Virus record (IMG/VR): IMGVR_UViG_3300025372_000010
Span: 1-64,000 of that record
Length of the DNA stretch: 64,000 nt
Source of the DNA: a virus
Lineage: Duplodnaviria > Caudoviricetes
Direction: 5' to 3' (one strand)
Shown here piece by piece: positions 4,575 through 49,028 of this stretch. The notes beneath the pieces were generated by a model that was given only the letters and a program-made list of their open reading frames with translations, was not told the DNA's origin and made no database searches. Numbering within the stretch: the stretch's first letter is position 1; every line of letters starts with the position of its first letter. A program made the translations under genes and the position numbers.

Positions 4575-4730
4575 ATGGCAGGTAGTTCAAAAACTCCAAA
4601 GTCAGTAGCTCCAAAGAGTGCAATTAAAAAAGCAACTCCTAATGCTTCAGCTCCAAAATCAGTAGCACCTAAAAATGCAGTTCCTTCTACTTTCAAAAAA
4701 GGTGGAATGACTGGAAAAAGAGGTTACTAA
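4575..4730 (+). CDS. Small basic Lys/Ala/Pro-rich protein (51 aa), not in ORF track
   Basis: Translates as MAGSSKTPKSVAPKSAIKKATPNASAPKSVAPKNAVPSTFKKGGMTGKRGY*. A-rich leader, PKSVAPK repeat, FKKGG motif. Confidence 0.75.
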   Translation: MAGSSKTPKSVAPKSAIKKATPNASAPKSVAPKNAVPSTFKKGGMTGKRGY

Positions 4731-33368: not shown

Positions 33369-36300
33369 TACACAACAGAATCCTGGGGCAACTACTAACA
33401 CTTTTACCAAAGGTATGGTAAAGGACTACAGTGAAATGTATGTCGGGGAAGGCTTATGGACACATGCTAGAAATGCAGTGAATAACTCACACGAAGGTCA
33501 GCTAGGTGTAATAGGTAATGAGCCTGCTAACTTATTCTGTGTTACTCTTCCTTATAGCTTAATAGGTTGTATTCATCTATTAGATGATCAATGGGCTATC
33601 TTTACAACAGATGATGCTGATTCTGAAATAGGTATCTTTGATGAATCTGCTTGTTCTTACAAAAAAGTTATCAATGACCCAGCTTTAGGTTTTAATAGAT
33701 CTCATCTTATTACTGGTGTATTTAGAAAACGCTTTGACTGCGAAAGATTAGTTTACTGGGATGATGGTTTAAATCCATCTCGTTTTATGGATATAGATAA
33801 TCCTCCATTACAGTATACTGAGTCTATAGTTAATGGTTGTATTATTAAAACATATACTAAAAGATTAGATACAGAGCAAATTAGATTAGCTCCTTTAGTA
33901 CAGCAACCATGTCTCACTTTATCTAAAGGTACAGGCTCTGGTACATTAGCTAATGGATCTTACCAAGTATGTTTAGGCTATACGATTAATGAGAATCGTG
34001 TAACTGACTACATTGGTCTTTCAAATGTACAGTCTTTGTTTACTCATGAAAATCTTACTGGATCACTTGATCTAAAGATTACAAACATGGACAGTCATTT
34101 TGATGAGTTTGAGTTAGTAGTTATTTCAACAGTTAATAATCAATCTGTTGCTAAAAGATTAGGATATTATTATACAACACAAGGTACTATTCATATTGAT
34201 GCAATATTACCTGACTTGTTTACAGTTCCTATTAATCTTATTCCTTTAAGAACTGAGCCTATAGAAAAGACTGATGCAATGTACTCAGTTAATAATTATT
34301 TATTAAGAGTAGGTACATACAGCAAGTATCAGTTTAACTATCAGCAACAAGCTAATAAGATTATTACAAAGTGGGCAGCTGTACAATATCCAGAAACTTA
34401 TTATTATAAAGGTGGTCATAATGTAGGATACTTAAGAGATGAACAATATGCATTCTTTATCCGTTGGGTATATAATACAGGAGAGCGTTCATCTAGTTTT
34501 CATATTCCAGGTAGACAAGCAACTGCTGCAGAACTAGTTAATGTTTATGCAGGAGATGCTTTTGAAACTATAGAAAGTATTAATAATATTCCTCAAACTA
34601 GACAGCTTTGGCAAGTACAAAATACTGCTGGAGTTGATGATCTTAATAGTTATACATTATCAGATGGTGGTGTAGTATTGGCAAAAGGTCATATGGGCTA
34701 TTGGGAATCTACTGAGATTTATCCAGCAGATCGTCCTGATATATGGGGACCATTATGTGGTCAACCTATTCGTCATCATAAGATGCCGGATGTTACAATC
34801 CCTGGAGGAGAGTTACTTAACCAATATAACTCAGTAAACAATACAGTGGTTATATTAGGAGTGGAATTTGATAATATATCTGTGCCTGTAGATGAAAATG
34901 GTAATCCTATATCTTCTATAGTTGGTTATGAAATACTTCGTGGTTCAAGAGAAGGTGAGAAGTCTATTATAGCTAAGGGTATGTTTAACAACATGCGTCA
35001 GTATGATATTCCTAATAATCCTTTAGTAAAAGGCCTATATCAAAACTATCCTTATAATGATTTAAGACCAGACTATCTTCTTACATCTGATGCCAATATT
35101 GGTACAGTGGGACATGCTGATGTAAACTTAGGATCTCCTCTTACTTCTTATAAAAAGAACTACTTATCTTTTCATAGTCCTGAGACTAACTTTAGTAAAC
35201 CATATTTAAGTGGTGAAGAAGTAAAGATCTATCAAGAGTTATCTGGTACAGCACAAGGTATGTTTTCTCAGCCTTATAAGCATCCTAAGTTTAAGATGCT
35301 TAGCAACTTTAGTTCTCAATTGGCTAGTACAATAGGAACTATTTCTGTTATAGGTGATTTCTTAGGATCTATTGCTCAAGATTTTAACCTAACTTTAAAA
35401 GGTACAGAAGCTCTTCCTTTTGATAAAAAGTTAACACTTACTAAGATCCCTAACTTTCCTTTAACATTTGGAGGAGGAGCAAGCTTTTTGGGTATTGGTG
35501 GTAGTGTAACTGGATCTATTCCTAACCCTGTAATTGTAGCGGAAAATATTGCAATAGGAGCATACAACGTAGCTGTTGCTATTGCTATGAGTTATATTGA
35601 AGCTGAAAGTACTGGAGAGCAATTATTTAATATTATTCAAGCTTTAGTTCCTAGAATACAGTTTGGTTTACAATACGATTCACATGGATTTTATAATAAC
35701 GCAAGAACAAATGTGGCTGGTAATAGAAGGAAAAGAATCGAGAAATCAGCATACGTAGGTGGTAACTTACAAAGCTTTGATACTGACTATCATGTAAATA
35801 ATATCTATAGATCTAATTTTGTAGTTATTAAAACTGAAGAAGACATAGCTGACCCTACTGTAGTAGATAATAGTAGATTTAGAATCTCTGAAAAGGGAGG
35901 AAATATTAACACTGTAGTAAGCTCTACAATATCTGGATACTATGGAGCTATTAAAGTTAGCTTTCCTAGTCAGTATGGACAACTAGAATCTATTAGACAA
36001 GTGCCAACTGGTAGCTGTGTATTTCCTATAGGAACAGATGTTTTATATAAATCAGATGTGATTTTTGGTGGTGACACTTATGTTGGAAGATATACAGAGA
36101 AGAATGCATTTACCTTCTTTAACTCATGGCCTGTAGGTGAACCTGATGAATATGAGATAGACTACAGAAACTATACTAATATACCTTACCCAAGATTCTG
36201 GCTTAATTCTTCTAAGACAGTATTTAGCTTGTTTAAGAATGCTAGTCTTCAACGTCATTTAGATGATAGAGAAAGCTCTTTATTTTATGTAAGTAAAGGA

Positions 36301-37956
36301 CACATTTATTTATTCTTTAATGGAGTGAGAGACTTTTATGTAGAGTCTGAGATTAATTTAGCTCAGAGAGACTGGGAAGATGATCTATCTAAACGTCACT
36401 ATGATCCTAATGAGTATACTGACTATACATCTTTATTCCGATCAGATATTGTAAAGAGTGGTAATTTCTGTAAGTATGATTATTCATTAAGTGTATCTAA
36501 GTTATTTACTAACTTTGCAAGTTGGGGTACATTATATCCTAGAGATTATAATCCTGCTACAGCTGCTAGTTGTTATGTCTACAGACCTAATAGAGTGATA
36601 TATTCTTTACCACAAGAACAAGAGCTTAAGAAAGATAACTGGAGAATCTTCTTAACTAATAACTATAAAGACTTTATATCTCCTATCACTGCTGTAAAGA
36701 AAGTAAATAAAACTGGTGCCCTCTTTATGATGGAGTATCAAAGTCCATTCCAGTTTATTGGAGTTGAACAATTGCAGACAGATGCTGGTACAAAAATTAC
36801 TGTAGGAGATGGTGGATTATTTAATCAAGCTTTACAGAATATAGTTAACTCAGATGAATCATATGAATATGGTTCTTGTCAGAATAAATATGCAGTGGCT
36901 GCAACTACTCATGGTATTTTTTGGGTGAGTCAAAACCAAGGAAAGATCTTCCAATATTCTGGAGGATTAAATGAGATATCAAGAGATGGTATGAAGTGGT
37001 GGTTTGCAAAGTATCTTCCTTCTCAGCTTCTTAAACAGTTTTCTGATTATCCTTTATATGATAATCCTGTAAAAGGAGTTGGTGTACAAATGATATATGA
37101 TAACACTGATGAGGTAATATATATTACTAAAAAAGATTACAAGCCAATAGTAAGTGATCTACAGTTAGAGGGAGAGAAGTTTTACCGTGTAATAAATGGT
37201 CATAAGACTTATTTTGAATTAACTGATACTAGTGTATTTGAACCAGCTCATTGGACATTAAGTTATGATCCTAAGAATAAAGTGTGGTTATCATTCCATG
37301 ACTGGATTCCTTCATTCTTGATTCCAGGTAAAGCTCACTTTATGAGTGTAAATACTAATAGCATCTGGAAGCATAACGTTAGATGTGATCAGTACTGTAA
37401 CTTCTATGGTAAAGATTATCCATTTGAAGTGGAGTTTGTTTCTTCTACAGGACAAGCAGTTAACTCTATGAGAAACATAGAATACATGCTTGAAGTGTAT
37501 AAATACTATAATGACTGCCGTGATAAGTTCCATCTATTAGAGGAGAACTTTGATCAGGCTATGATATATAACTCAGAACAAGTGAGTGGATTATTAGAGC
37601 TTGTAATGAAAGCTAAGAATAACCCATTAGATGGATTAACCTATCCTAAGATTAATGCTAGTAGTATATCTATTAATTACTCTAAGATAGAACAGAAGTA
37701 TAGATTTAACCAGTTCTGGGATATTACTAAAGACCGTGGACAATATACTGGAAATGAACTACCAATGTTTGTTACAGCTGCTAATGGATATCAATATCAA
37801 GTTAATCCATCTTATATAGACTATAATAAACATATACTAGAGCGTAAGAAGTTTAGACACAACTTAAATAAAGTGTGGTTACGCAAAATGGTAAGTGGTA
37901 GTCATAAGTTCTTGTTTAAACTATCCAACGAAAAACTACAATCTTCTTATAGATAA
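33361..37956 (+). CDS. Tail stabilisation/muzzle protein (P22 gp10-like family)
   Basis: 1531 aa; NTFTKGM..D, YLRDE.Y.F.I.W, GYWESTE.YP, IRHHKMPD, FGGDTY, WTLSY.P...W.SFHDW.P. Confidence 0.9.
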   Translation: MANTQQNPGATTNTFTKGMVKDYSEMYVGEGLWTHARNAVNNSHEGQLGVIGNEPANLFCVTLPYSLIGCIHLLDDQWAIFTTDDADSEIGIFDESACSYKKVINDPALGFNRSHLITGVFRKRFDCERLVYWDDGLNPSRFMDIDNPPLQYTESIVNGCIIKTYTKRLDTEQIRLAPLVQQPCLTLSKGTGSGTLANGSYQVCLGYTINENRVTDYIGLSNVQSLFTHENLTGSLDLKITNMDSHFDEFELVVISTVNNQSVAKRLGYYYTTQGTIHIDAILPDLFTVPINLIPLRTEPIEKTDAMYSVNNYLLRVGTYSKYQFNYQQQANKIITKWAAVQYPETYYYKGGHNVGYLRDEQYAFFIRWVYNTGERSSSFHIPGRQATAAELVNVYAGDAFETIESINNIPQTRQLWQVQNTAGVDDLNSYTLSDGGVVLAKGHMGYWESTEIYPADRPDIWGPLCGQPIRHHKMPDVTIPGGELLNQYNSVNNTVVILGVEFDNISVPVDENGNPISSIVGYEILRGSREGEKSIIAKGMFNNMRQYDIPNNPLVKGLYQNYPYNDLRPDYLLTSDANIGTVGHADVNLGSPLTSYKKNYLSFHSPETNFSKPYLSGEEVKIYQELSGTAQGMFSQPYKHPKFKMLSNFSSQLASTIGTISVIGDFLGSIAQDFNLTLKGTEALPFDKKLTLTKIPNFPLTFGGGASFLGIGGSVTGSIPNPVIVAENIAIGAYNVAVAIAMSYIEAESTGEQLFNIIQALVPRIQFGLQYDSHGFYNNARTNVAGNRRKRIEKSAYVGGNLQSFDTDYHVNNIYRSNFVVIKTEEDIADPTVVDNSRFRISEKGGNINTVVSSTISGYYGAIKVSFPSQYGQLESIRQVPTGSCVFPIGTDVLYKSDVIFGGDTYVGRYTEKNAFTFFNSWPVGEPDEYEIDYRNYTNIPYPRFWLNSSKTVFSLFKNASLQRHLDDRESSLFYVSKGHIYLFFNGVRDFYVESEINLAQRDWEDDLSKRHYDPNEYTDYTSLFRSDIVKSGNFCKYDYSLSVSKLFTNFASWGTLYPRDYNPATAASCYVYRPNRVIYSLPQEQELKKDNWRIFLTNNYKDFISPITAVKKVNKTGALFMMEYQSPFQFIGVEQLQTDAGTKITVGDGGLFNQALQNIVNSDESYEYGSCQNKYAVAATTHGIFWVSQNQGKIFQYSGGLNEISRDGMKWWFAKYLPSQLLKQFSDYPLYDNPVKGVGVQMIYDNTDEVIYITKKDYKPIVSDLQLEGEKFYRVINGHKTYFELTDTSVFEPAHWTLSYDPKNKVWLSFHDWIPSFLIPGKAHFMSVNTNSIWKHNVRCDQYCNFYGKDYPFEVEFVSSTGQAVNSMRNIEYMLEVYKYYNDCRDKFHLLEENFDQAMIYNSEQVSGLLELVMKAKNNPLDGLTYPKINASSISINYSKIEQKYRFNQFWDITKDRGQYTGNELPMFVTAANGYQYQVNPSYIDYNKHILERKKFRHNLNKVWLRKMVSGSHKFLFKLSNEKLQSSYR

Positions 37957-37957
37957 A

Positions 37958-40900
37958 ATGAATAAGCTTTTACAATTATTAGTAGATACTGGTGATGTAT
38001 CACACAGAGCTCTTCCTGGGTTACAAAAAGCTCAGGTAGGTGGAACCTCTTTGTTTCAAGCTCCTGCTCCTATATATGATAATATTCCTAGCCTTGGTGC
38101 TGTTCGTAAGAATATTATGATGCAGCAACAAGCAGCACAACAAGCTGCTAACAGAGCTGCTCAGGAAAGACAAGGTAGCATTAGTAAAGCTGAAGCTCCT
38201 AGATCTGCTAGTTCTAAAGCTTGGGCTATGGCCACTCATCCTATGACTGCTGCTCAATATGTAATTGCGGGTAGAGGAATACCAGAGCATTTTGATAGAG
38301 GTCCTGAGAATAACTTAGATAATGCAATGGATGTAATAAATCCGTTCTTTTATGCTAATGAAGCAGGTCAAGCTATTTCTGGTGCGGGTAAATATGCTAT
38401 GGACCCATATCATAATAATCCTGCAATGTTAGGAGAAGCTGCTTTACATGGTATTACATCTGTACCATTATTTACAGAGTTTGCTCCTGAGCTAAAAGGA
38501 TTAACAAAAAACACTGGTAAAAACTTAAGACAGTTTTTAGGATATGCTACACAAGGTGTGCCTTTTGAAAGCACTATACCTAGACTTCCTGAAGGTGCTG
38601 TTAAAGATTTTAGACATATACAAGAGATAGCTAAGATGAAAGAGTCTGGAGCTAACTTGGCAGATAGAATGAAGTATGGTATAAAGAATGTGCCAGATAA
38701 TCACTTTGAGAGAATCTTTGAAATGCCTAAGTCTGAAGCACAAACTTATTTAGATAAAGGCTTTGGTCAAAACCCAGAACCTAAAAACTATTCTGTTTTA
38801 CCTAATAGATCTTTTGCTTCTGATCCTATAGATTTTGATCCTAGACAAGGAACTATTGATGATGTTAGACAACTTATCCTTCAAGGTTATATTACACATC
38901 ATCCTGAAACAGGCAATATGCTTTTAGCAAATGATGTACATCATCTTACTAATAGTCAATTAGATAATGCACTTAATGATTTATCTGCGGCTCATGATCG
39001 TCATTATGATCAAATCATGAGAGGTCACCAAATGCCTGCTGAAAGTCCAAGAGAAGTATATAGTTTAGAAGGATCTGATGCTGACATTGATCGTGATTTT
39101 ATGGATTATACTACAATGCCTTCTGATAACTTTGTAAGTAATGCAAGAAACACAGGTAGATTTAACTTTAATTTAGATAAGAATCCTAGAGCTGGAATGA
39201 ATATGAAGCAACAAGCTATGTATGAGCTTGGAGATGCTGCAAAGACAGGAGTTTCTAGATTAAAAGATATGTTGATTGATGCTTCTCAAAACTATCCATA
39301 CTACTCTGGTAATAATGTAGCTCATAAAGTACCTAGTCTTTTTAAAGCAGATAATACTTTAAAAGGATTAGCTAATACTGTTACTTCACAAGTAAACGAA
39401 GGATTAAAGTCAGGTGATGTATTTACTGGAAGTGAAAATACTTCTCATAATTCTTGGTTACCTCAGGTAAAACAAGTGTTTAATTATAAAGAAGGAGCTC
39501 CTCAGTTTTTAGGATATAAACCTATGAATCAATTAGGGTATCTTAATAAGATGGGAGTAGAAAATGAAGATATAGCTAAATACTTAAATAGTGAAATAGA
39601 TCTTTTACAAGGACGTAATAAGATACCTAATGATATACAAAGACCATTTATGAAAGGAGATCGTGTAATGCTTCCTCAATATGGTGTTAAACAGTTTCAA
39701 GTAGGTGGACCTATAGTAGATCCATTAGGTCAATGGGCTCATCCTGGTCAAATCACTCGTATACCTAGTAATCAAATAACTATGCAAGGAGTTCCTTATC
39801 CTGTATTAGGTGTAGGATCTAATGGACAGCATCAAATGATGTATCCAGGTGGTGAGTATTCTTTTGGAGGAGCTCAACATGTAGATGAATATCCTATGAT
39901 GGCAGGTGGTGGTATCACTCATGCAGGTCATCATTTTCCAGGATACAATCGTCCTATAGCAGACAGCGATGGTGTACATAAAAAAGTAGTGTTAGCTAAA
40001 GTGGGTAATAAAACAAAGGTTGTTCACTTTGGTGCTAAAGGATATAGTAATAATTATTCTGCTAAAGCAAGAGTTGCTTATAAAAGCCGTCATGCTGGTG
40101 AAGGTAGTCAATCTAAACTAACTGCAGGTTATTGGGCTTATCATAATTTATGGAGCTCACACTCTCCTGCTAATCATGCTGGTAAGCATAGTGGTCATGG
40201 AGAGAGATTTGCTCAAGATGGTGGTGAAATGAATATGTATCAAGATGGAGGTGGTTATAACGATAACCAAATATATAACTCAGTTCCTAAAAGAGTTACA
40301 TTCTTACGTCACGGTATAACAGATGAAGATCTTAGAGGAGAGAATAGTGGACAGAATGATATTCCTATTAATAATAAGGGAGTGTATGAAACACTAAAAA
40401 CAGCTCATCAGTTAGCTGATAGACCTGTTGATTATTTAGTTAACTCTCCTGTACCAAGAGCTGCTCAAACTACAGCTATATTAGCTGATGAATTAAGTTT
40501 ACCACATGTAGTAAATCCGTATCTTGCAGCATGGAATCTAGGTAAGTTTTCAGGTAGACCAGAAAAGGAGTTTAACGAAAAGTATTTTGTAAAAAACCCT
40601 GACGTTCCTGTTCCTGGTGGCGAAAGTTTTAATAACTTTAAAGAGAGAGTGTTAACTGGTTTAGATCAATTAGATGGTATGCCAGGCAATCCAGCTGTTG
40701 TCACTCATAGTAAGACCTTACAACTATTAGAAGCTTTACAAGCTAACAAGGGTGTATGGAACAAGAAAGCTGAACAGAAATATCTTTCAACAAAGACTAA
40801 AGAAGATAAACAACTTTACGAGTTTGATACTAACTTAGCAAAGATTGGTGGTAACTTAGAATATGGTGGTTTATTTAAAGCTGCATTTGGAGGACCAACT

Positions 40901-41005
40901 CCAGCTAAAGCTAGAGAAATACTACATGATAAAACCGTTAATGGTCATCCTATAACAGATAAACAAAGAAGATTCTTTGGTTGGATATCTTCCCAAAAAA
41001 AGTAA
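37958..41005 (+). CDS. Modular virion cargo protein with xxxGG motifs; includes a histidine phosphatase domain (probable start ATG 37958)
   Basis: Cys-free from ATG 37958; eight xxxGG motifs; FLRHG..SP..RA.QT..PGGES..VVTH domain at about 40290-40740. Confidence 0.8.
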   Translation: MNKLLQLLVDTGDVSHRALPGLQKAQVGGTSLFQAPAPIYDNIPSLGAVRKNIMMQQQAAQQAANRAAQERQGSISKAEAPRSASSKAWAMATHPMTAAQYVIAGRGIPEHFDRGPENNLDNAMDVINPFFYANEAGQAISGAGKYAMDPYHNNPAMLGEAALHGITSVPLFTEFAPELKGLTKNTGKNLRQFLGYATQGVPFESTIPRLPEGAVKDFRHIQEIAKMKESGANLADRMKYGIKNVPDNHFERIFEMPKSEAQTYLDKGFGQNPEPKNYSVLPNRSFASDPIDFDPRQGTIDDVRQLILQGYITHHPETGNMLLANDVHHLTNSQLDNALNDLSAAHDRHYDQIMRGHQMPAESPREVYSLEGSDADIDRDFMDYTTMPSDNFVSNARNTGRFNFNLDKNPRAGMNMKQQAMYELGDAAKTGVSRLKDMLIDASQNYPYYSGNNVAHKVPSLFKADNTLKGLANTVTSQVNEGLKSGDVFTGSENTSHNSWLPQVKQVFNYKEGAPQFLGYKPMNQLGYLNKMGVENEDIAKYLNSEIDLLQGRNKIPNDIQRPFMKGDRVMLPQYGVKQFQVGGPIVDPLGQWAHPGQITRIPSNQITMQGVPYPVLGVGSNGQHQMMYPGGEYSFGGAQHVDEYPMMAGGGITHAGHHFPGYNRPIADSDGVHKKVVLAKVGNKTKVVHFGAKGYSNNYSAKARVAYKSRHAGEGSQSKLTAGYWAYHNLWSSHSPANHAGKHSGHGERFAQDGGEMNMYQDGGGYNDNQIYNSVPKRVTFLRHGITDEDLRGENSGQNDIPINNKGVYETLKTAHQLADRPVDYLVNSPVPRAAQTTAILADELSLPHVVNPYLAAWNLGKFSGRPEKEFNEKYFVKNPDVPVPGGESFNNFKERVLTGLDQLDGMPGNPAVVTHSKTLQLLEALQANKGVWNKKAEQKYLSTKTKEDKQLYEFDTNLAKIGGNLEYGGLFKAAFGGPTPAKAREILHDKTVNGHPITDKQRRFFGWISSQKK

Positions 41006-41021
41006 TAACTATAAAAATACT

Positions 41022-42596
41022 ATGAAAGCTCAACAATCCGCTCAGAACCAAAAGATCATGCAATTGATCCAAGCCTATGCCCAAAAGACTGGTGTAGATC
41101 CTCAACAAATTATGCAACAGTTGCAGCAGATGCAACCTCAGCAAGCTCAACAAGCTATACAGCAAATGGCTCAAACCTTACAAGGACATGCTCAGCAAGC
41201 TCCTCAACAAGGTGGTATGCAAATGCCTGATATGAATCAGATGGCTAATGGAGGTATTAACAATCCAGGCTTTAAAGCTTTACCAGAGTTTGTACAACAT
41301 AGTATCATCTCTCATATGGCATATGGTGGAATGTATCCACAAATGGCTGAGGGTGGAAAACCTGAGTGGTTAATATCAGCTCAGCTTAAAGCTCAAGGTT
41401 ATTCTGGCGATGCCTTAGCTCAAAAGTTAGACTCTATGGCTCATGGTGGTGAAATGATTCGTAGAGCTGATGGTCATTATTCCAAGAGAGGTCTTTGGGA
41501 TAATATCCGTGCTGCTGCAGGTAGTGGTAAAAAACCTACTCCTGAAATGTTAAAGCAGGAAAAAAAGATCAAATCTGAAATGGCTTATGGCGGTCCTGTA
41601 TTTCCTAGTGGATATAGTAATAGTCCTGAGATAAGTAAAGCAAAAAGTAAAGCTATTAATAAAAAGCAAGATGGTGGCCCAGCAATGGGAGGAGCTCCAA
41701 TGGGAGATAATGATGGTGATGAAGGTCAACAATCAGCTCAACAACAAGGTTCAGCACCTATGATGCAACAACCACATCAAGAAATGATGGCAGGTCATCC
41801 AGGTGGAGGAGCTATGCATCCTATGGCATTAATGATGGCAATGAGTCAACATGCTGGTTCTGTACAGCATCACAAGAAACATCATAAGAAACATAAAGAT
41901 GGTGGATCTACATATGCTGATGGTGTATGGTACCAAGATGGTGGTGCAGCTTATTTACCAGACTATACAGAGTATGCATTAGGAGGAAGATATTTCTTAC
42001 CTAATGGACTTGGATCTTATAGAGATGGTGGTAACTTAAATAGAGGAGCTAGCTTAAACTTTATGCCTAGTGAAGCACCAGACTTATTTAGTCATGTACC
42101 TATTGAATCATTTAAGAGCTCAGGTCAAAAACCTCAGTCACAAATGTCTTTTGGTGGAGGTGTAGGTTATCCTGTAGCAGGAGCTGAGTTTGTAAGTGGT
42201 TACCCAGCAGGTTCAAGAACTCCAGATATAGCTGGTCACATGGCATACGGTGGTGGTGTAGGAGTTTATCCAGAAGGATATAACTTAGTTACTGGTGTAC
42301 CTAATCGTACTCCTGACGCTGCAGGTCATATGGCTTATGGTGGAATTCATATCAAGAAGTCTCATGAAGGTAAGTTTACTGAATGGGCTAAGCGTAATGG
42401 ATATTCTATGAGTCAAGCTATTTCAGCTGGTAAGAACTCTTCTAATCCTGCTGTTAGAAAAATGGCTACCTTTGCAGCTAATGCTCGTAAATGGAAACAC
42501 CAAGATGGTGGGATAGCAGTTGGTCAAGAAATGAATGTTACTCCAGAACAACTAGAGATGTTGAAGAAACAAGGTTATAAATTTGACGTTATATAA
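41022..42596 (+). CDS. Low-complexity modular cargo protein with about 14 MAxGG/xQDGG motifs (probable start ATG 41022)
   Basis: Q/M/G-rich, Cys-free; short folded-looking basic modules between the motifs. Confidence 0.8.
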   Translation: MKAQQSAQNQKIMQLIQAYAQKTGVDPQQIMQQLQQMQPQQAQQAIQQMAQTLQGHAQQAPQQGGMQMPDMNQMANGGINNPGFKALPEFVQHSIISHMAYGGMYPQMAEGGKPEWLISAQLKAQGYSGDALAQKLDSMAHGGEMIRRADGHYSKRGLWDNIRAAAGSGKKPTPEMLKQEKKIKSEMAYGGPVFPSGYSNSPEISKAKSKAINKKQDGGPAMGGAPMGDNDGDEGQQSAQQQGSAPMMQQPHQEMMAGHPGGGAMHPMALMMAMSQHAGSVQHHKKHHKKHKDGGSTYADGVWYQDGGAAYLPDYTEYALGGRYFLPNGLGSYRDGGNLNRGASLNFMPSEAPDLFSHVPIESFKSSGQKPQSQMSFGGGVGYPVAGAEFVSGYPAGSRTPDIAGHMAYGGGVGVYPEGYNLVTGVPNRTPDAAGHMAYGGIHIKKSHEGKFTEWAKRNGYSMSQAISAGKNSSNPAVRKMATFAANARKWKHQDGGIAVGQEMNVTPEQLEMLKKQGYKFDVI

Positions 42597-42604
42597 ATAT
42601 ACTT

Positions 42605-45600
42605 ATGAAGATACGTATTACTAAACTACCTAAGCTACCTAAAGCACAAGTTGGAATGGCTTCCACTCCTATATACAGTGTTAATGGTAGACAGTTAGAT
42701 CCTAACAATCCAGCTGATGCTCAGGAGATTGCAAATGCTAAAGCTGCATCTGATGCGGCTAATGCTCATTTTGCACAACCTAGCTCTATTGATATGTCTC
42801 AGTTTAAAGCTCCTATGGTTGGTCCTGTTTATCAAGATCCAGAACCAGAGAGTCCATCTGATCCTTATGGAAATATAGCTCGTCCTAAAGCTCAAGGTCA
42901 GTTAGTAAACCCTAGTACAAATCCAGGATTACTTAACCAAGTTAATCAGATGTCTGATAATGTAGGTTATGAAATGGATCAAAGATATCAGACAGATCCT
43001 AAGTTTAAAAGAAGACTTGATAGAAGCACAAGACCTGCTAATATAAACACATCTAATAATGTTTCTAATGCTATTAGTAACTTACAAAACTTTGGACAAG
43101 ATCTTCAAAAAGGTATAGGTGTGACATCTGCTTTAACAGATATGTTTGTTACTAATCCTCAAAGACAAAGAGATAATCAAGCACGTGTAAGAAGTGCTAT
43201 GCAGACAGATAACTTATTTCCTTTAGTTCCAGGTAATATGTCTGGTAACAAAGGAGACTATGTAGCTGCAGGAAGTAGATATGGTGACTTTAGACCTGAT
43301 GAGAAAGTAGCTAATAAAGGTATGTATAGTAGCTCATTTTATCCTGAGATGAGAGCTTTTCAATTAGGTGGTGGGTTAGATTATATGATGCCTAGTACAG
43401 TGTTACCTTCTTATACACCATCTTCTACAGCATTGCCTGTAAGATCTGCTGCACCTAGTAATACTCCTAGTACTAGATCATATTCTAATAATACTAGTAA
43501 TGCACATAGTAGCAATAACTCAGGTTCTTTTCCTTCTCACTATGATCATAACAATCCAGGTAATATTCATATTGGTGGTTTTGCTAAACAATATGGAGCT
43601 ACACAAGGTAGACCAGATGGAGATGGTTATGTAGCAGTATTTCCAGATATGCAAACTGGAATAAAAGCTATGAAAGATTTGTTATTTGGATCAGCTTATA
43701 GTAACTTGCCAATAAGTGCTGCTAGAACTAAATGGGTTGGATATGATAATCCAAGCTCAAGAGCTATTGCTAATGCTGTAGGAAGTGATAAAAAGCTATC
43801 TGACTTAAGCCCAGAAGAAAGAGAAAAAGTATTTAATGAGTTTATTAGATGGGAAGATGCTAATGTATACAATCAAATGAAAAAACAAGGTCTTGCTTAT
43901 CAACAAGGCGGACAAACTAATAATATGAAAATACGTATAACAGGTGCACCTGAGGCTGCTTATGGTGGTCAGTTTGGTTTTGGTATTGATCTAGGTCAAC
44001 GTGGTACATATGATACTATTACTAAGAACTCTTATGAGCATGTATCAGATACTATACCAGAAGCTAAAAATGGTGGTGCTACTATTGAAGCTGAGAAAGG
44101 AGAAACTGTAGTTTATAATAAAGATGGTGTATTAGTACATCAGAAGATTGGCGGTAAGCGTCACTTTGCTGGTGGTACTCCATTAGCAGTTCCTCAAGGA
44201 AGCTTTATTTTCTCTGATACAAAGAAGATGAAGATTAAAAACCCTGCTATCTTAGCTCACTTTAATAAAACTTATAAAGCAGGTGGAATTACTCCAGCTG
44301 ATGTTGCTAAGCAATATGATATAAATAAGTACCAAGCTATTATAGATGATCCTCAAGCAGATGATTTATCTAAGAATACAGCTAAGCTTATGTTATCTAA
44401 CTACAAAAAGAAGCTAGGTGGTTTAGCTTTAGTACAAGAGTCTATGAAAGGATTCCCACAAGGAGTTCCTGAATTAGCTAAGTCAACTTTTGGTCCACAA
44501 AAGCCTACAGAAGATAATGACACTCAAGCTAAATATGGTGGTTATTTTGCTGATGGTGGAGAAAGTGGAGATCCTGTAACTGATGAAATGAAGAAAGCTG
44601 CTAAGAGAGCTCAGACTAAAAAAGACTTAGAAGGCTATACTAAAGTAGCTGATGCTGATGGTAGAGTTTACTATCAAAAGAAAACTAAAGTTAAAGATGC
44701 TCAGCATGTTCCAGGATCAGATACACCAGGTCATTATGAAAAAGGATACAATGTGGATTTAACTGTTCGTGATAATGGCGTATCTCCTGATGACATTATG
44801 AACAATCCTGATAAGTATAAAACTTTCCATAAGTTATTAGAAGGAGCTCCTGAGGATATTAAGCGTAAAGCTGCTGAAGATTTATACTATCATGGTCATA
44901 TGCCAGGTAAGTATGTACCAGGTGAAAAAACTCCAGATCAAGATATTCCAGAAGAATGGAAGACTGATTACTTATATGAAGAACCAGAGCAACCAACTAC
45001 TCCAGGTGGTGGTGGCGGGGATAATAATACTAGGACTATTCCTACTAAGTTTAATCAAGGACGTAAACCTTTCTTTGGACATAACTTATTTGTAGCTCCT
45101 CAAAGAGATGTAAACTATGCAGCTCCAATGAATGCTATGATGCCTGAGCCTACATTCTATGACCCTAGTAGAGAATTAGCTAGTAACGAAGAGCAGTCTA
45201 ATGCTATGTTAGCTTATATGTCTGGATTAGGTAGTCCTCAGTCATATGCTGCTAATGCATCTGCTGTACAAGGAAATGCTCTTAGAAATGCAGCTGATAT
45301 TAATGGTAGATATAATAACTTAAATGTAGGGGTAGCTAATCAATTTAGTCCTTTACAAACTAATATAATGAACCAGTTAATGCAATATCAAGCTAACAGA
45401 GCTGATACATTAGCTTGGAATCAAAACCAAATGAACAAGTCTTATAATAATAGTCTTAGAAACTATTTAGGATCTGTAGATAAATACAGAGCTAATGATT
45501 ACGACTACTACACTAAGAGAAATATTACTAATGCTGTTAATCCATACTTTAACTATGTAGATGGACCAGGTGGAGGTAATATTCAGTTTAAGCCAGGTGT

Positions 45601-45904
45601 AGATCAATACAGTATGATTACTGGTAGATTTAATATGCCAGGTATGCAACAACAGCAAGGTCTTAGCGGTGATCAATACTTAGCTACTATGCAAAATCTT
45701 AGATCTAAGTATAAAGACTTATCCCCAGGTCAGTTAAATAAAGCTATTGGATTAATGTATCCAGGTATGGGAGGTTCTGCTAACAATAGAGCAATGATGG
45801 CTCAGTATATGTCTCAAGCAATGAATAATCCTTATAACGCATCTAATCCAATATATCGTGGAGGTTATGATATTAATTCACCTTTTGATACTGGAGAAGA
45901 GTAA
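42605..45904 (+). CDS. Virion cargo protein with lysozyme-like NNPGNI domain and xxxGG motifs
   Basis: HNNPGNI..AVFPD...G..A...LL; IEAEKGE..GG.RH..GGTP..FIFSD module; Cys-free. Confidence 0.8.
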   Translation: MKIRITKLPKLPKAQVGMASTPIYSVNGRQLDPNNPADAQEIANAKAASDAANAHFAQPSSIDMSQFKAPMVGPVYQDPEPESPSDPYGNIARPKAQGQLVNPSTNPGLLNQVNQMSDNVGYEMDQRYQTDPKFKRRLDRSTRPANINTSNNVSNAISNLQNFGQDLQKGIGVTSALTDMFVTNPQRQRDNQARVRSAMQTDNLFPLVPGNMSGNKGDYVAAGSRYGDFRPDEKVANKGMYSSSFYPEMRAFQLGGGLDYMMPSTVLPSYTPSSTALPVRSAAPSNTPSTRSYSNNTSNAHSSNNSGSFPSHYDHNNPGNIHIGGFAKQYGATQGRPDGDGYVAVFPDMQTGIKAMKDLLFGSAYSNLPISAARTKWVGYDNPSSRAIANAVGSDKKLSDLSPEEREKVFNEFIRWEDANVYNQMKKQGLAYQQGGQTNNMKIRITGAPEAAYGGQFGFGIDLGQRGTYDTITKNSYEHVSDTIPEAKNGGATIEAEKGETVVYNKDGVLVHQKIGGKRHFAGGTPLAVPQGSFIFSDTKKMKIKNPAILAHFNKTYKAGGITPADVAKQYDINKYQAIIDDPQADDLSKNTAKLMLSNYKKKLGGLALVQESMKGFPQGVPELAKSTFGPQKPTEDNDTQAKYGGYFADGGESGDPVTDEMKKAAKRAQTKKDLEGYTKVADADGRVYYQKKTKVKDAQHVPGSDTPGHYEKGYNVDLTVRDNGVSPDDIMNNPDKYKTFHKLLEGAPEDIKRKAAEDLYYHGHMPGKYVPGEKTPDQDIPEEWKTDYLYEEPEQPTTPGGGGGDNNTRTIPTKFNQGRKPFFGHNLFVAPQRDVNYAAPMNAMMPEPTFYDPSRELASNEEQSNAMLAYMSGLGSPQSYAANASAVQGNALRNAADINGRYNNLNVGVANQFSPLQTNIMNQLMQYQANRADTLAWNQNQMNKSYNNSLRNYLGSVDKYRANDYDYYTKRNITNAVNPYFNYVDGPGGGNIQFKPGVDQYSMITGRFNMPGMQQQQGLSGDQYLATMQNLRSKYKDLSPGQLNKAIGLMYPGMGGSANNRAMMAQYMSQAMNNPYNASNPIYRGGYDINSPFDTGEE

Positions 45905-45959
45905 ACCTAGTAAGTTTAGCTTTAAACTTTAAATATTTTTCGTTATATTATTAATGTAC
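45902..45959 (+). promoter_or_regulatory. Putative late promoter/operator, copy 5
   Basis: TAAAC-CTAGTAA-GTTTA (45902) and GTTATATTATTAATGTAC (45942). Confidence 0.65.
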
Positions 45960-45962
45960 CCT

Positions 45963-48900
45963 ATGGCACAATACATCCCATACATACAAGATCAAGCTCC
46001 TGAACCAGTGTTATACCAACCTGATTGGGGGATGATTGGAACTGCCTTACAAAAGAAGGATTATCAGTACCAACAAGGAATTAATCAACTTCGTCAGGGG
46101 TATGGTTCGATTCTTAATGCACCTCTATCTAACTCAGAGAATATTCCTGTAAGAGATCAGTATGTAAAACAAGCTCAAGAAAGTCTTAAGAAGATTTCTG
46201 GAGCTGATCTTTCTTTACCAGAAAATGTACAAGCAGCTCAAAATATCTTCGAGCCTTTCTGGAATGACCCCTTTATTGTAAAAGATGCTAACTACACTCA
46301 ATGGTATCAGTCTCAACAACAAAAGCTTGCTAGTTGGAGAGATTCTCAAGATCCAAAGGTTAGATCTATGTACAGTCCTGTAATGGAACAATACCTTAAT
46401 CAAGGTTTAAATAAGCTACAAACTGCTAAGAGAACTCCTGAAGGCTTTTCTCGTATAGAAAGAAGAGAAGCCATTCCTTTTACTAATGTACAAGAATGGT
46501 TACAAGATAGAGCTAAAGATCAAGGTTTAAAGATTGATTGGACAGATGTATCTCCAGATGGTGCTTACCTTATAGATACTACCAATGGTCAAAAGACTCA
46601 GAAGAAGTTTTCTTCTTGGGCTGAGGGTATGATGGGTGATAACTTTAACGAGCAGTTTAAGATTGAAGGTAGAGTGAGAGCTGAGAATGTAGAAAACTAT
46701 ATTAAATCTCAACCTGCTAATGCTGGATTACCTCCTGAACAAATCAGAGCTAAAGTTGCTGATTATGTTATAACTAATCTTAAAAACGGATATGAGCAAA
46801 GAGTAGGAAAGATTGATAGTCAAATCTCTAGTATAGATAACTTATTAAAATCTTACCCTGCAAATATTAGTGATCCTGCACAAGCTCAAAAAGCTCAGCA
46901 GTTATTAGATGAAAGAAGACAGTTAGCTAGTTTAAAAGATAGTGTAAGTTCTGAATACGGTGGTATAGAAGATCCCAATAGTCCTTTGTATAAACAAACT
47001 ATACAAAGTGTTTTACAAGATCCTACTAATTATTTTGGTACCTTATCTAAACAATCTACTATTAATAACTGGGCTACAGCAAGAGCTGAAGTAGAAAGCA
47101 GAACTATTAAAGAAAACTCTTCTTTCTTTAAAGCTCAAGATATAAAAGAAAAGTATGATAATCTTAACTTCCAAAAACAAAAGGAAGCAGATCTTAAAGA
47201 TTATAGAGATAAATTATTAAGTATTAAAGGTGCTGGTGGATTAAGAGGAGCTGGTGGAACTGGAGCTGGGGGTGGAGGTAAAATGAGTTTTACTTTAGAC
47301 AACGATGGTAATGTAGTTCCAGTGTTTGGTCCTGCTACAGAGGGAGAACAACTTTCTACAGGAGCTAGAGTTAAAGGTTTAGGCTCAACAGATATTACTA
47401 CAACTCCTAGTGCATATGATGTATTTATGAACTATCAAGGAGCTTTATTAGGTACTGCTCATGATAAGACATTTAATCCAGAAAGTGGAGCTATTCGTTT
47501 TTTAACTAATGCAGGATTATCTGATGATGATGTAATGCAAATCAGTTCTGGTCTTAAGAGACAACTTACTGATGGAGAAAACTTCTCATGGAATCCTAAA
47601 GAAGTAACTGCTTTAGATAAGTTAGCTAAATCTCAAGGGTTTAGTAAATATTGGAAAGATAGTAAAGTGAGTAATATCCAACAAGGTATTCTTAACTATG
47701 CTAAAGACTATGTGAAGCAAAAGCATGATAATAATATTGACTTTACAGATGATGATACAAAAGTGTTACAAAACTATTTAGAAGCTAAACAAGCTAATGA
47801 TATGTTTGTAGCTAATGAAGATGACAGACAAAATCTTATTAAGAATAGTATCTTAACTGATCCTAAAACTTATGGAAAGATTACTGTTGATAGAGATGGT
47901 AAAAAAGATCTTATACAGCAATCTGATGTACAAAAGTTCTTTAAAGATAATGGTATTAAAGTTATAGATAAGTGGTCTGTATCTAGCGATCCTGAAGAAA
48001 AGGTAAGCTTAAAAGATTTGTCTAGAGCTTTTATGCAAGGTAAAGTTAAGTTTTCTACAGCAAAGCTTGCTGATATGGTTGAGCAAAGAGCTACTATTGA
48101 TGGTACCACTTATGCTATATTAGGTAATGTAGAAGGAATCAAATCTAGATTCGGAAGCTCTGAGGATTTTTCTAATCTATATATGAAAGCTAATACAACT
48201 GTAGTTCCTCATCTTAAGTACTTTGAGAACAAAACAGCTCGTATGGGTACTGTATGGGGATTAAACTTAGATGATTATAATAAAGATCCTCAAGGATTCC
48301 AAATAGTAGAGGAGGCATTATTACCATCTAATCAGCTTAATATATATGCTCAAGATAAAAATGGTAATCAAACTGTAGTAGATAACGATACTCGTAACGC
48401 TATAAAAATGTTATTAGGTAGTCGTGAGAATATTAAGAAGTATTTAGGTAATGCTGACTACTACACACAAGGAGTTAATGGTAACCCAACTCTTTCTTTT
48501 AATATAAAAGAGTTGTCTTCATCTGATAAGAATAATATTGGTGGAGTAGATCTTAACAAGTTAAACACAGATGTGTATAAGATTGAAATAAGTCCTGAAG
48601 CTAAAGGTCCAAATTTACGTAACTTACCACAGAATAGCGGTAACTATGTTTATCAAAAGCTTTTGCAGGGTGAGTCTATGCACAGTGATGATATGTTAAA
48701 CTCTTATGGAATTAGTTATGATATAGTTCCAAATAATAATACAAATCCTACAGGAGGATCTGTTACATTTAAGTACAACTTAAGAACTAATAAACTAAAC
48801 CCTACTACAGGACAAATGGAAATAGCTACTGTTCCTATGCAAGAGCGTAAAGTATTCTCATTTGAAGATGTAACTCCTGATCAAGTGGTAGGAATGATCC

Positions 48901-49028
48901 ATAGTAATATAGTTCAGTTGATGATGGTTAATCAACAAGCTAGTAAGCAGTATGAACAACATCAAAAAAGTAGTAATGCTCCTAGCTTTAATCTTCAAGC
49001 AGAGCTTAATAAACTAGGTATAAAATAA
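45963..49028 (+). CDS. Ejected cargo protein (probable start ATG 45963)
   Basis: About 1020 aa, Cys-free; YQPDW...KD..YQQG, DLSLPEN..A..IF.PF..D N-terminus; Gly linker. ATG 45954 lies within the promoter motif. Confidence 0.75.
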   Translation: MAQYIPYIQDQAPEPVLYQPDWGMIGTALQKKDYQYQQGINQLRQGYGSILNAPLSNSENIPVRDQYVKQAQESLKKISGADLSLPENVQAAQNIFEPFWNDPFIVKDANYTQWYQSQQQKLASWRDSQDPKVRSMYSPVMEQYLNQGLNKLQTAKRTPEGFSRIERREAIPFTNVQEWLQDRAKDQGLKIDWTDVSPDGAYLIDTTNGQKTQKKFSSWAEGMMGDNFNEQFKIEGRVRAENVENYIKSQPANAGLPPEQIRAKVADYVITNLKNGYEQRVGKIDSQISSIDNLLKSYPANISDPAQAQKAQQLLDERRQLASLKDSVSSEYGGIEDPNSPLYKQTIQSVLQDPTNYFGTLSKQSTINNWATARAEVESRTIKENSSFFKAQDIKEKYDNLNFQKQKEADLKDYRDKLLSIKGAGGLRGAGGTGAGGGGKMSFTLDNDGNVVPVFGPATEGEQLSTGARVKGLGSTDITTTPSAYDVFMNYQGALLGTAHDKTFNPESGAIRFLTNAGLSDDDVMQISSGLKRQLTDGENFSWNPKEVTALDKLAKSQGFSKYWKDSKVSNIQQGILNYAKDYVKQKHDNNIDFTDDDTKVLQNYLEAKQANDMFVANEDDRQNLIKNSILTDPKTYGKITVDRDGKKDLIQQSDVQKFFKDNGIKVIDKWSVSSDPEEKVSLKDLSRAFMQGKVKFSTAKLADMVEQRATIDGTTYAILGNVEGIKSRFGSSEDFSNLYMKANTTVVPHLKYFENKTARMGTVWGLNLDDYNKDPQGFQIVEEALLPSNQLNIYAQDKNGNQTVVDNDTRNAIKMLLGSRENIKKYLGNADYYTQGVNGNPTLSFNIKELSSSDKNNIGGVDLNKLNTDVYKIEISPEAKGPNLRNLPQNSGNYVYQKLLQGESMHSDDMLNSYGISYDIVPNNNTNPTGGSVTFKYNLRTNKLNPTTGQMEIATVPMQERKVFSFEDVTPDQVVGMIHSNIVQLMMVNQQASKQYEQHQKSSNAPSFNLQAELNKLGIK

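Follow-up and report, generated by a model that had tools for sequence, protein, structure and literature searches.

A conserved Gly-Gly junction tag in the predicted cargo proteins of an uncultured crAss-like phage

The cargo locus and its features

The window analysed is a stretch of 64,000 nucleotides (positions 1 to 64,000 of the IMG/VR virus record IMGVR_UViG_3300025372_000010) from a source genome of 112.9 kb with an estimated completeness of 87%. Three consecutive genes, here termed g1, g2, and g3, lie between a homologue of the muzzle protein and the RNAP block, and none of them encodes a cysteine. The coordinates, genes, and motif examples given for them in the initial annotation, which had been made from the sequence alone, agree with what is found. 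The features of the locus, with structural predictions taken from AlphaFold, are:

33361..37956, + strand: muzzle-protein homologue, anchoring the kept gene order muzzle–cargo–RNAP block
37958..41005, + strand: cargo gene g1, 1015 aa, without Cys
37958..38044, + strand: g1 leader, residues 1–29, MNKLLQ...LPGLQKAQVGG
39695..39913, + strand: FQVGG, module A (g1 585–647), MAGGG
39920..40255, + strand: basic DUF5754-like module (g1 ~655–750; phrog_7595, phrog_220), then AQDGG and YQDGGG
40298..40729, + strand: histidine phosphatase domain (g1 781–924; His_Phos_1, E 4e-24)
40838..41002, + strand: AKIGG-LEYGG-AAFGG triplet, then the C-terminal mini-module (PTPAKAREILHD...) of g1
41022..42596, + strand: cargo gene g2, 524 aa, 13.7% Gly, 14 motif copies
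41586..42344, + strand: long predicted-disordered stretch (g2 189–441) with nine motif copies
42333..42512, + strand: MAYGG, IHIKK module (g2 442–492), HQDGG
42605..45904, + strand: cargo gene g3, 1099 aa
42605..42655, + strand: g3 N-terminal leader, MKIRITKLPKLPKAQVG
43898..43969, + strand: g3 fusion joint, YQQGG followed by an internal leader copy (MKIRIT...AAYGG)
44039..44500, + strand: folded domain, g3 479–632, pLDDT > 90
44528..44560, + strand: AKYGG-YFADGG connector after the folded domain, predicted disordered
45954..49028, + strand: next virion gene, 1024 aa, without Cys and without the motif

The muzzle homologue matches phrog_37948 and phrog_15100 and is 26% identical, over 85–97% of its length, to proteins of crAss-like, Cellulophaga, and Leptolyngbya phages. 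The gene order muzzle–cargo–RNAP is repeated in the loci L001, L002, and L049 and in 46 IMG/VR loci; DFDVD is found in a 2625-aa protein downstream of the cargo genes. By gene order and by the similarity of a single module to PhicrAss001 C1, g1–g3—known here from the genes of an uncultured, distant crAss-like phage—appear to encode C1-type cargo (ejection) proteins, and the product of 45954..49028 is, to judge by its position and N-terminus, a C2 (gp46)-like cargo protein.

From N- to C-terminus, g1 consists of a leader ending in AQVGG, a conserved N-region, a unique middle, module A, the DUF5754-like module, the histidine phosphatase, and the C-terminal mini-module. A leader of the same type also opens the first cargo gene of close relatives. 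The DUF5754 match in Pfam (E 0.0085) is below the cut-off, and the homologue of this module in relatives resides in their second cargo gene. DUF5872, PG_binding_1, and SLT are found in the first cargo gene of relatives. The phosphatase domain, already claimed in the initial annotation and confirmed by the His_Phos_1 match, is flanked by YQDGG and AKIGG; no covering BLAST match is listed for it in the sampled cargo genes of relatives. The mini-module, flanked by GG, recurs in L013 and L035. In g2, confident modules (pLDDT > 70) are predicted at residues 1–58, 445–492, and 498–524, and residues 79–188 are modelled as helical with a pLDDT of about 50–65, while about 60% of the residues remain at pLDDT < 50. 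Its composition favours G, M, Y, Q, A, and P, and the disordered stretch includes a 30-aa direct repeat ending in MAYGG. The third gene is a fusion of two genes found apart in many relatives; the fusion joint is predicted to be disordered, and its GG is invariant in 28 sequences. The designation of g3 ~284–431 as a 'lysozyme-like' domain is a weak lead.

The motif at module and gene borders

The consensus of the motif is a bulky hydrophobic residue (M/Y/F) followed by A/Q/K, any residue, and two glycines. Counted with [MYFAHKL][AQKERS]xGG, a pattern taken from the initial annotation and defined post hoc, it occurs 9 times in g1, 14 times in g2, and 8 times in g3. These 31 copies, where about 30 had been claimed, all fall within 37958–44560 and include four of MAYGG. 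The suggested enrichment in cargo over other genes is borne out, since the remaining ~17,000 residues of the window contain only 5 matches and shuffling the residues of each protein gives means of 1.15 (g1), 1.57 (g2), and 1.15 (g3), the observed count being equalled in 0 of 5000 shuffles. The context of the 43 GG sites in the cargo genes is also biased: M/Y/F occupies position -3 in 20 (5.2 expected), A/Q/K occupies position -2 in 29 (9.7 expected), and both coincide in 15 (1.2 expected, p ~3e-13). Shuffles and context test together rule out chance as the source of the motif. Information content amounts to 0.40, 0.27, and 0.31 bits at -3, -2, and -1 and drops to ~0.1 after GG; the residue right after GG is more often E, Q, S, or Y, and less often R, F, H, or W, than expected. 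Motifs also occur in tandem clusters 5–15 aa apart, and conserved GG-Pro junctions are found among the motif sites.

Approximately 25 of the 31 copies are true connector or leader motifs. That the motif marks domain borders, as had been proposed, holds for most but not all copies: the ends of BLAST segments cluster within 8 aa of motifs and shuffled modules are motif-flanked, yet AKNGG, YKAGG, KKLGG, and HFAGG sit within the folded domain g3 479–632, and YSFGG is internal to a conserved g1 module, so that four or five copies are inside folds. Border copies, by contrast, are located in stretches of pLDDT < 50 between confident folds.

Conservation of the motif extends to the cargo genes of 46 related phage contigs, and in a 14-sequence alignment of g2 the small set of invariant or nearly invariant columns includes its glycines. 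To judge from these columns and from the g3 joint, a mere flexible linker would not show such conservation; the Gly-Gly junction tag is both real and conserved. When module content is compared across relatives, as the initial annotation had proposed, the same modules recur at other positions or in other genes with a motif retained on both flanks. Module A, for example, is present in ~30 loci at varying positions within the first cargo gene, preceded by xQGG in ~10 loci and mostly by a GLPGG-type leader in the others, and followed by PM(M/A)QxGG or a one-Gly variant. In 46 loci, the cargo genes open with short leaders that differ from one another yet all end in the motif, one such leader being the 7-residue MYYQQGG. 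Because the borders are marked, flanked modules move, and points of gene fission and fusion keep the motif, the cargo is modular and exchangeable, and the comparison supports the view that these proteins are strings of small swappable modules.

The IHIKK module of g2 additionally matches 57 stand-alone small proteins, whose leaders end in hydrophobic-K-K-G plus Gly or another small residue. This tag-ending leader is kept by 57 of 57 stand-alone homologues and by cr1_1 gp_19357, which shows a role of the tag that needs no neighbouring module. Nearly half of the stand-alone forms go on into Q-x-GG and a tail, whereas KWKH or KWN is the end, or nearly the end, of most of the others; since these mostly lack a second motif, the second motif appears mainly when something follows.

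The coincidence of shuffling breakpoints with the motif could also be explained at the level of DNA, if conserved codons provided a short homology for module-shuffling recombination and the peptide were merely tolerated. Recombination has been suggested as a role of glycine-rich motifs in T-even adhesins. In the cargo genes, however, it is the residue class (M/Y/F, A/Q/K) rather than the nucleotides that is conserved. Codons differ between copies, the Gly codon use of the motif (GGT 40, GGA 18, GGC 3, GGG 1) is close to that of the rest of the cargo genes, and homologous exchange would have only fifteen degenerate bases, a very short stretch, to work on, all of which makes this explanation highly improbable.

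A purely structural role without any partner in trans is less remote but still unlikely. The two glycines could form a tight turn or helix cap, with the hydrophobic residue packing on its own module, or the Gly- and aromatic-rich connectors could serve as an elastic or phase-forming filler of the capsid, for which the composition and disorder of g2 would be suitable. Spacing to the adjoining module is indeed fixed, as where GG immediately precedes IHIKK or PM-(M/A)-Q-x-GG immediately follows module A, and some GG copies are integral to folds, as exemplified by the invariant H-x-x-GG of g3. Against this stand the occurrence of the same end-piece on unrelated modules and unrelated leaders, the AlphaFold models, in which the border motif is not packed onto modules, and the stand-alone forms ending in KWKH or KWN, most of which do without the second motif and thus show it to be dispensable as a fold cap.

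Uncut tag or processing site

The closest known counterpart is gp45, the C1 protein of PhicrAss001 (Bayfield et al. 2023, PMC10172136; PDB 7QOG chain M), which occupies the same genome place after the muzzle and before C2 and the RNAP proteins. Residues 426–496 of g2 match 359–428 of gp45 (7qog_M) with E 1.3e-7 and 34 bits, and sequence similarity is limited to this IHIKK module, which is flanked by AKDGG and NAFGG in gp45 as compared to MAYGG and HQDGG in g2. By tblastn, the module is also found in gp45-type genes of PhicrAss001, PhiCrAssBcn phages, DAC15, and others. For g3 no match was obtained among PDB sequences. With the model of g3 479–632, VIA-align ranks 7qog_M first, at Z 5.6 and an rmsd of 4.2 with 93 residues aligned and 20% identity, the next rows being one Z unit lower; Foldseek gives E 0.7, and hhalign to gp45 covers only 18 columns. 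The part of 7qog_M matched, as a candidate counterpart, is the portal-bound domain of PhicrAss001 C1 (PMC10172136). Motif-like peptides of gp45 comprise FSAYGG, AFAEGGG, LKAFGG, AKDGG, NAFGG, and MFAYGG, and two ordered pieces of the protein (214–245 and 425–552) begin at or just after such motifs, although the search pattern as such is not enriched in gp45 (3 vs 1.4 expected). Equivalent content is here spread over three genes with ~4x as many motif copies and extra payloads such as the histidine phosphatase. Pfam PF25725 (crAss_CARG1) has no match in g1–g3, nor in the whole genome at E <= 10. The motif is enriched in C1-like proteins of the cultured Cellulophaga phage phi4:1, whose syntenic gp039–gp041 are annotated as virion proteins from MS/MS, and of bajarodcaudo virus 1, as opposed to 0 of 4 C2-like proteins tested. 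Term searches of Bayfield et al. (PMC10172136) and full-text literature searches found no description of it.

The initial annotation had offered a cleavage site or a multivalent tag as explanations, and both remain live readings. Since the gp45 model is contiguous over the motif, GG-Pro junctions are conserved, and no protease was found, we lean towards the latter and tentatively propose, as a reading with somewhat less than an even chance of being correct, that the motif is an uncut joint-and-docking tag in the C1-type cargo of crAss-like phages. The motif would be the conserved end-piece of each autonomous unit—leader or module—within disordered connectors of a chain that stays uncut in the virion, acting as joint and handle at once. 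The two glycines would allow the chain to bend and to pass one module at a time through portal and tail, and the residues preceding them would be a putative contact point for one shared assembly or ejection partner, candidates being the portal, the tail barrel, or the scaffold. As any tag-carrying module could then be loaded and carried, modules could be freely swapped, fused, and split. The absence of cutting, the binding of a partner, and its identity are the parts of this proposal that we infer; the AlphaFold models, which predict no packing of the tag against any surface, count against docking.

The main rival to an uncut tag, possible but rather doubtful, is a processing site at which an unrecognised phage or host protease cuts after or next to GG, either at head maturation or post-ejection, releasing leaders and many small, mostly basic proteins, as with T4 internal proteins, which bear a capsid-targeting sequence, or polyubiquitin. 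The motif reads like such a site in several respects: the informative positions come before a GG that closes the motif, the residues right after GG are biased, cargo genes and all stand-alone homologues have a leader of 5–50 aa ahead of the first GG, and tails follow the last GG. Tandem clusters, the occurrence of modules elsewhere as separate small genes, and a second motif that is mostly present when something follows point in the same direction, and processing of injected multi-domain proteins has been proposed before (PMC5512222; bioRxiv 10.1101/2020.03.07.982082). In published PhicrAss001 gel data, re-analysed from the MALDI peak lists (Shkoporov 2018), gp45 is undetectable at its full-length size, its matches in the 77–100 kDa bands being at decoy level (5 vs 5.7), although the portal, of similar size and copy number, is detectable; this fits cutting weakly. 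Parts of gp45 are located ~420 A apart in tail and capsid, which fragments would explain as easily as one chain.

On the other hand, the chain in the cryo-EM model of PhicrAss001 C1 begins at A425 and continues through F426-G427-G428, joined to W429, into the portal-bound domain, and a search of the PhicrAss001 MALDI lists, other than those of bands 11–13, for semi-tryptic termini at the GG sites of gp45, as suggested initially, gave 2 matches compared to 4.7 for random boundaries. No genome match was obtained for Peptidase_C39 (PF03412), C48 (PF02902, a proxy only for clan CE cysteine peptidases), S78, S77, ClpP, or S49 (the last four at E <= 1), or for MPTase-PolyVal (PF18818, at E <= 10), in the 87% of the genome covered. 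PHROGs and Pfam scans of most window proteins revealed nothing protease-like, and the product of the gene between portal and MCP is acidic and scaffold-like. The sole HExxH, HEALH at residue 2439 in the C-terminus of the vRNAP protein, shows a weak SprT-like match (E 0.02), and this region was not recovered in five relatives. The cleavage-site claim thus retains its GG-ended grammar but has neither a protease family nor the gp45 model on its side, and the 'plug-and-play' delivery envisaged in the initial annotation stands as far as the modular, exchangeable build is concerned and falls short as to mechanism.

Relation to known systems

A broader form of the processing idea, again more doubtful than probable, takes the tag as the code by which crAss-like phages would mark modules for an unrecognised system of loading and processing. 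Modules bearing hydrophobic-A/Q/K-x-G-G would then be packed and subsequently freed, three genes would give rise to some two dozen small proteins by a polyubiquitin-like grammar, and the presence of gp45 pieces in both tail and capsid would be accounted for.

Processing at Gly-Gly is known from double-glycine leaders cut by C39 peptidases, from polyubiquitin, and from adenovirus and African swine fever virus polyproteins, which are cut at GG-X. As in these systems, units end in x-x-G-G and would be recognised from the N-terminal side, and the head-to-tail arrangement with a tail after the last GG resembles polyubiquitin. Differences lie in the lack of a C39 or Ulp1-like (C48) peptidase match here, in the Cys-free cargo, and in the fact that no ubiquitin-like modules were found. 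Judged by eye, the hydrophobic residue of the stand-alone leaders stands three places before the first Gly, one position off the published double-glycine leader consensus.

In T4, prohead cleavage occurs after Glu in L/I-x-E, and in phiKZ-like phages in A/S/G-x-E. The internal proteins of T4, which bear a capsid-targeting sequence, and the ejection proteins that the prohead protease cleaves in phiKZ/SPN3US-like phages (PMC9026906, PMC10052503, PMC5694885) are likewise small, often basic, head-carried, and injected, and bear a short N-terminal leader followed by one conserved signal on many unrelated proteins. The same feature is present here, the leaders of 46 loci and of 57 stand-alone homologues being motif-ended, but those phages possess an identified prohead protease, whereas none was found here and the signal ends in Gly-Gly.

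Polyvalent proteins (Iyer, Burroughs, Anand, de Souza, Aravind 2017, PMC5512222), for which release of units by processing has been proposed, also unite several unrelated domains in one injected polypeptide and display extensive mosaicism. Since neither 'linker' nor 'glycine' occurs in the text of PMC5512222, it describes no junction motif like the present one. The class is defined by effector domains and an embedded zincin-like peptidase (MPTase), the latter being the PF18818 domain without a match here; a polyvalent-like mix is nevertheless seen in g1, which combines His_Phos_1, the DUF5754-like module, module A, and others.

Gene order and the C1-type cargo genes

The window, with a G+C content of ~35%, covers the leftmost 64 kb of the 112.9-kb record of an uncultured phage, for which no near-identical phage records were found.

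Gene order from the portal to the giant-protein block
26–1381, +, portal gene, cut at the contig start
1493–2800, +, scaffold-like protein of 435 aa, acidic, coiled-coil-like and Cys-free, between the portal and capsid genes
2830–4449, +, major capsid protein
Downstream of the capsid gene and before the muzzle gene, +, Gly-rich fibre-like proteins, then ring-like proteins
33361–37956, +, muzzle protein homologue of crassviruses, 1531 aa
37958–41005, +, cargo gene g1
41022–42596, +, cargo gene g2
42605–45904, +, cargo gene g3
After g3, +, C2-like gene, then the giant-protein block

The 435-aa protein resembles a scaffolding protein, with no match to any family, and no prohead protease gene is found in its usual place in the portal–capsid interval; this layout, with a scaffold and no protease, is P22-like. 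The muzzle homologue is ~26% identical over 85–97% of the length to a protein of Leptolyngbya phage Lbo-JY46 and likewise to proteins of Cellulophaga phages phi4:1 and phi17:2 and of one gut crAss-like phage. The order muzzle–cargo–giant proteins is common to the window, to the four phages just named and to Bacteroides phage PhicrAss001, and one of the giant proteins bears DFDVD, the virion RNA polymerase motif. Because of the muzzle similarity and the shared gene order, the phage is classified, on sequence grounds, as a distant crAss-like podophage with g1–g3 as its C1-type cargo (ejection) genes. The likeness of g1–g3 to C1 of PhicrAss001 (gp45) consists of genome position and one module; the Pfam model crAss_CARG1 does not match the window's cargo proteins.

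Frequency and conservation of the di-glycine motif

The initial annotation had described three Cys-free genes punctuated by about 30 copies of a di-glycine motif, and this description is borne out: g1, g2 and g3 encode 1015, 524 and 1099 aa without cysteine, and the pattern [MYFAHKL][AQKERS]xGG matches 9, 14 and 8 times, respectively, always within 37958–44560. The motif is concentrated in the cargo, as only 5 matches occur in the remaining ~17,000 residues of the window, and its frequency exceeds what composition predicts, since residue shuffles give ~1.2–1.6 matches per protein and none of 5000 reaches the observed number. A context test on the GG sites of g1–g3 finds M/Y/F at position −3 in 20 of 43 (5.2 expected) and A/Q/K at position −2 in 29 of 43 (9.7 expected). 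On the basis of shuffles and context test, chance or composition is rejected as the source of the motif. Across relatives, 0.40, 0.27 and 0.31 bits of information reside at −3, −2 and −1 and ~0.1 bit after GG, where the first residue prefers E, Q, S or Y.

Conservation was followed in 46 IMG/VR contigs encoding a muzzle protein 37–63% identical to that of the window. The two to four genes after the muzzle gene are Cys-poor in most of these contigs, and at least one of the post-muzzle genes is clearly motif-enriched in nearly all of them; the short second cargo gene of relatives has 12–18 GG sites versus ~5–7 expected. Significant enrichment extends to bajarodcaudo virus 1, with 8 copies in its C1-like protein, and to Cellulophaga phage phi4:1, with 6 copies in gp040, of the form F/Y/L-Q/K-x-GG. 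PhicrAss001 gp45 contains the motif-like copies FSAYGG (205–210), AFAEGGG (260–266), LKAFGG (328–333), AKDGG (371–375), NAFGG (424–428) and MFAYGG (558–563) and is not enriched for the search pattern (3 copies versus 1.4 expected); four C2-like proteins were tested, and none contains the pattern. In g2, few columns of a 14-sequence alignment are invariant or close to it, and those of the motif glycines belong to this group. A lineage-wide switch between GG and one-Gly forms (MAKSG, MAQxG), which would point to co-evolution with a single partner, was looked for by eye and set aside, the pattern being mixed. The C-terminal tail of g2 (residues 498–524; window 42513–42593), of the form V-T/S-P-E-E-L...G-Y-x-F-E-I, is kept in 14 of 14 aligned relatives and accounts for two of the protein's four invariant columns; it may act as a docking element in its own right.

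Modules, leaders and stand-alone forms

That the motif falls at domain borders was likewise upheld: the ends of BLAST segments shared with relatives lie within 8 residues of it far more often than of randomly placed motifs (12 versus 3.9, 22 versus 11.5 and 16 versus 5.6), the observed values being reached in at most 36 of 2000 simulations. The histidine phosphatase domain, placed at such a border by the initial annotation, is recovered with an E value of 4e-24 between YQDGG and AKIGG; no BLAST match to it occurs in the sampled cargo genes of relatives among the matches listed. The proposed lysozyme-like domain (g3 284–431) found no such backing, with no Pfam match and ESM Atlas scores of only 0.76–0.82.

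Between motifs, modules change position and gene across relatives. Module A (g1 585–647) is present in ~30 loci, where it lies within the first cargo gene at residue ~10, ~210, ~540, ~1060 or ~1450, preceded immediately by x-Q-GG in ~10 loci and mostly by a GLPGG-type leader in the others, and followed immediately by PM-(M/A)-Q-x-GG or a one-Gly variant. A DUF5754-like basic module lies in g1 here and in the second cargo gene of relatives, and two further modules, IHIKK in g2 (residues 442–492) and the mini-module at the C-terminus of g1, are similarly mobile. g3 consists of two fused genes, which are separate in the related-phage loci L009, L010, L013, L014, L027, L035 and L037; the joint retains the start of the second gene (MKIRIT...AAYGG), with a GG that does not vary among 28 sequences.

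Most cargo-block genes proper of relatives start with a short leader ending in the motif, and the C2-like and giant proteins downstream of the block have no such leader. Examples are MNKLLQ...LQKMQKGG, MS-LKVNKKSVKQDGG, MKKIKINKLPKGF...MRDGG, MK-YKVRIK-AP-SMAYGG and MYYQQGG alone; they are mutually dissimilar, the motif being their common part. Loading by means of a leader and a signal is known from T4.

Residues 359–428 of PhicrAss001 gp45 match the g2 IHIKK module (E 1.3e-7), and in both phages the motif stands on both flanks. This module occurs as a separate 71-aa gene in crAssphage cr1_1 and as 57 metagenomic proteins of 60–98 aa. All 57 stand-alone forms begin with a 9–51-residue leader closed by hydrophobic-K-K-G and then Gly or a different small residue; this end lies at IHIKK or no more than one residue from it. 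After KWKH, nearly half continue with Q-x-GG and a tail, and most others end at or just after KWKH or KWN. Since stand-alone forms keep leader and tag, the first tag needs no neighbouring module, and the second occurs mostly when something follows.

Judged from these comparisons of sequence, the motif is a conserved, position-specific tag that is defined from its N-terminal side and terminates every autonomous unit of C1-type cargo proteins. A passive linker is disfavoured because the glycines are among the most conserved columns, the hydrophobic residue three places upstream is kept, and stand-alone modules still carry the tag; a cap or filler with a purely structural role is rated unlikely. 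It is highly improbable that the motif marks a recombination joint at the DNA level, because the codons of its copies vary and are not unusually alike. With a passive linker and a DNA-level joint both disfavoured, what is left is a mechanism in which the tag would be recognised by some shared partner.

Structure, possible cutting and proposed docking at the tag

When g3 425–665 was modelled with a 28-sequence alignment, a confident fold was predicted over 479–632 only. YQQGG, the internal leader, AAYGG, AKYGG and FADGG have pLDDT values below 50; AKNGG, HFAGG, YKAGG and KKLGG lie inside the predicted fold. Its best structural match is the portal-bound domain of PhicrAss001 C1 (7qog_M; Z 5.6, rmsd 4.2, 93 residues), the top hit yet one of modest score; only 18 columns align when the profile of the g3 domain is compared with gp45, and Foldseek alone gives an E value of 0.7. 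In g2, pLDDT exceeds 70 only at 1–58, 445–492 and 498–524, and residues 79–188 are predicted as helical at ~50–65. Dips below 50 fall on motifs, HQDGG coinciding exactly with the dip at 493–497.

Processing by a protease that cuts at the motif is a minority possibility. The motif does have a processing-type grammar, with N-side recognition, leaders, and tails after the last GG. No evidence of cutting was found, however, and some evidence speaks against it. The protease families C39, C48, S78, S77, ClpP, S49 and MPTase-PolyVal have no match in the genome, and PHROGs and Pfam scans yielded no peptidase among most window proteins, head and tail gene products included, or among five large proteins encoded by first cargo genes in relatives. 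HEALH (window 61900–61930; residue 2439 of the polymerase protein encoded at 54597–62474) is the only HExxH among the virion-internal proteins g1–g7. This C-terminal region of the virion RNA polymerase is weakly SprT-like (E 0.02), and the surrounding 326 aa were not recovered in five related genomes or IMG/VR; an LPD23 lead comes from 18% of one ESM Atlas cluster, and PF18838 has no match in the genome. This candidate zincin was not counted as a protease. Several motif junctions are GG-Pro, a bond shunned by most endopeptidases.

In the virion of PhicrAss001, the C1 model begins at A425, and F426-G427-G428 is continuous with the domain, so that the site at 425–428 is uncut after GG. The cryo-EM-ordered pieces of gp45 (L049/L050, the PhicrAss001 locus; record positions 41987–44515) are 214–245 and 425–552, beginning just after FSAYGG (205–210) and at AFGG (425–428). 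The virion sample of Bayfield et al. (2023; PMC10172136) was run as a single excised band, and the data therefore carry no size information on gp45. The PhicrAss001 MALDI lists of Shkoporov et al. 2018 were re-analyzed by peptide-mass fingerprinting, in which bands 1–9 identify as gp44, gp47/gp50, gp49, gp20, gp26/gp22, gp25 and gp23. At 77–100 kDa, the range that includes its predicted 91 kDa, gp45 gives only decoy-level matches versus 10 for the portal, which is of about the same size and copy number, a result weakly compatible with cutting. No excess was seen of masses that place a terminus at GG (2 versus 4.7 for random boundaries) in the lists covered, all but those of the three smallest bands (11–13).

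Given that no protease was found, that the layout is P22-like and that the only structure shows one motif as ordered and uncut, we tentatively favour an uncut tag that would serve as both joint and docking site.

In gut and sea, crAss-like phages rank among the most abundant viruses. Their loading and ejection of several megadaltons of protein is a process on which a single tag closing every module would offer a handle. Such a tag predicts which residues to mutate and which termini to seek by mass spectrometry, with PhicrAss001 gp45 and Cellulophaga phage phi4:1 gp040 as culturable test systems. If the tag suffices for loading, it would be a simple route to placing chosen proteins in phage particles; should it be a cut site, a new protease is still to be found. 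Injected phage proteins as strings of exchangeable domains, possibly processed, are suggested in passages on polyvalent proteins (PMC5512222) and again in passages on crAss polymerases (10.1101/2020.03.07.982082); the junction motif was found neither in these passages nor by full-text searches.

In crAssphage cr1_1, three small genes separate the stand-alone IHIKK copy, which is annotated as a transcriptional regulator, from the portal gene ~1.3 kb upstream. A stand-alone 78-aa homologue on a 163-kb ENA contig (locus L055, 10001–10838) lies just upstream of an Amidase_3 (endolysin-type) gene, whose start it overlaps. In the window, a 51-aa basic ORF just after the capsid gene (4575–4730, +; MAGSSKTPKS...STFKKGGMTGKRGY) contains F-K-K-G-G, the tag that ends stand-alone module leaders, and may encode another small protein of the cargo. 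Next to the polymerase, on its downstream side, comes a 1261-aa protein (62477–64000, continuing to genome position 66262) that may hold cargo-type modules in its C-terminal part, because four motif copies, YELGG, LAVGG, HAYGG and FAGGG, cluster at residues 835–1044.
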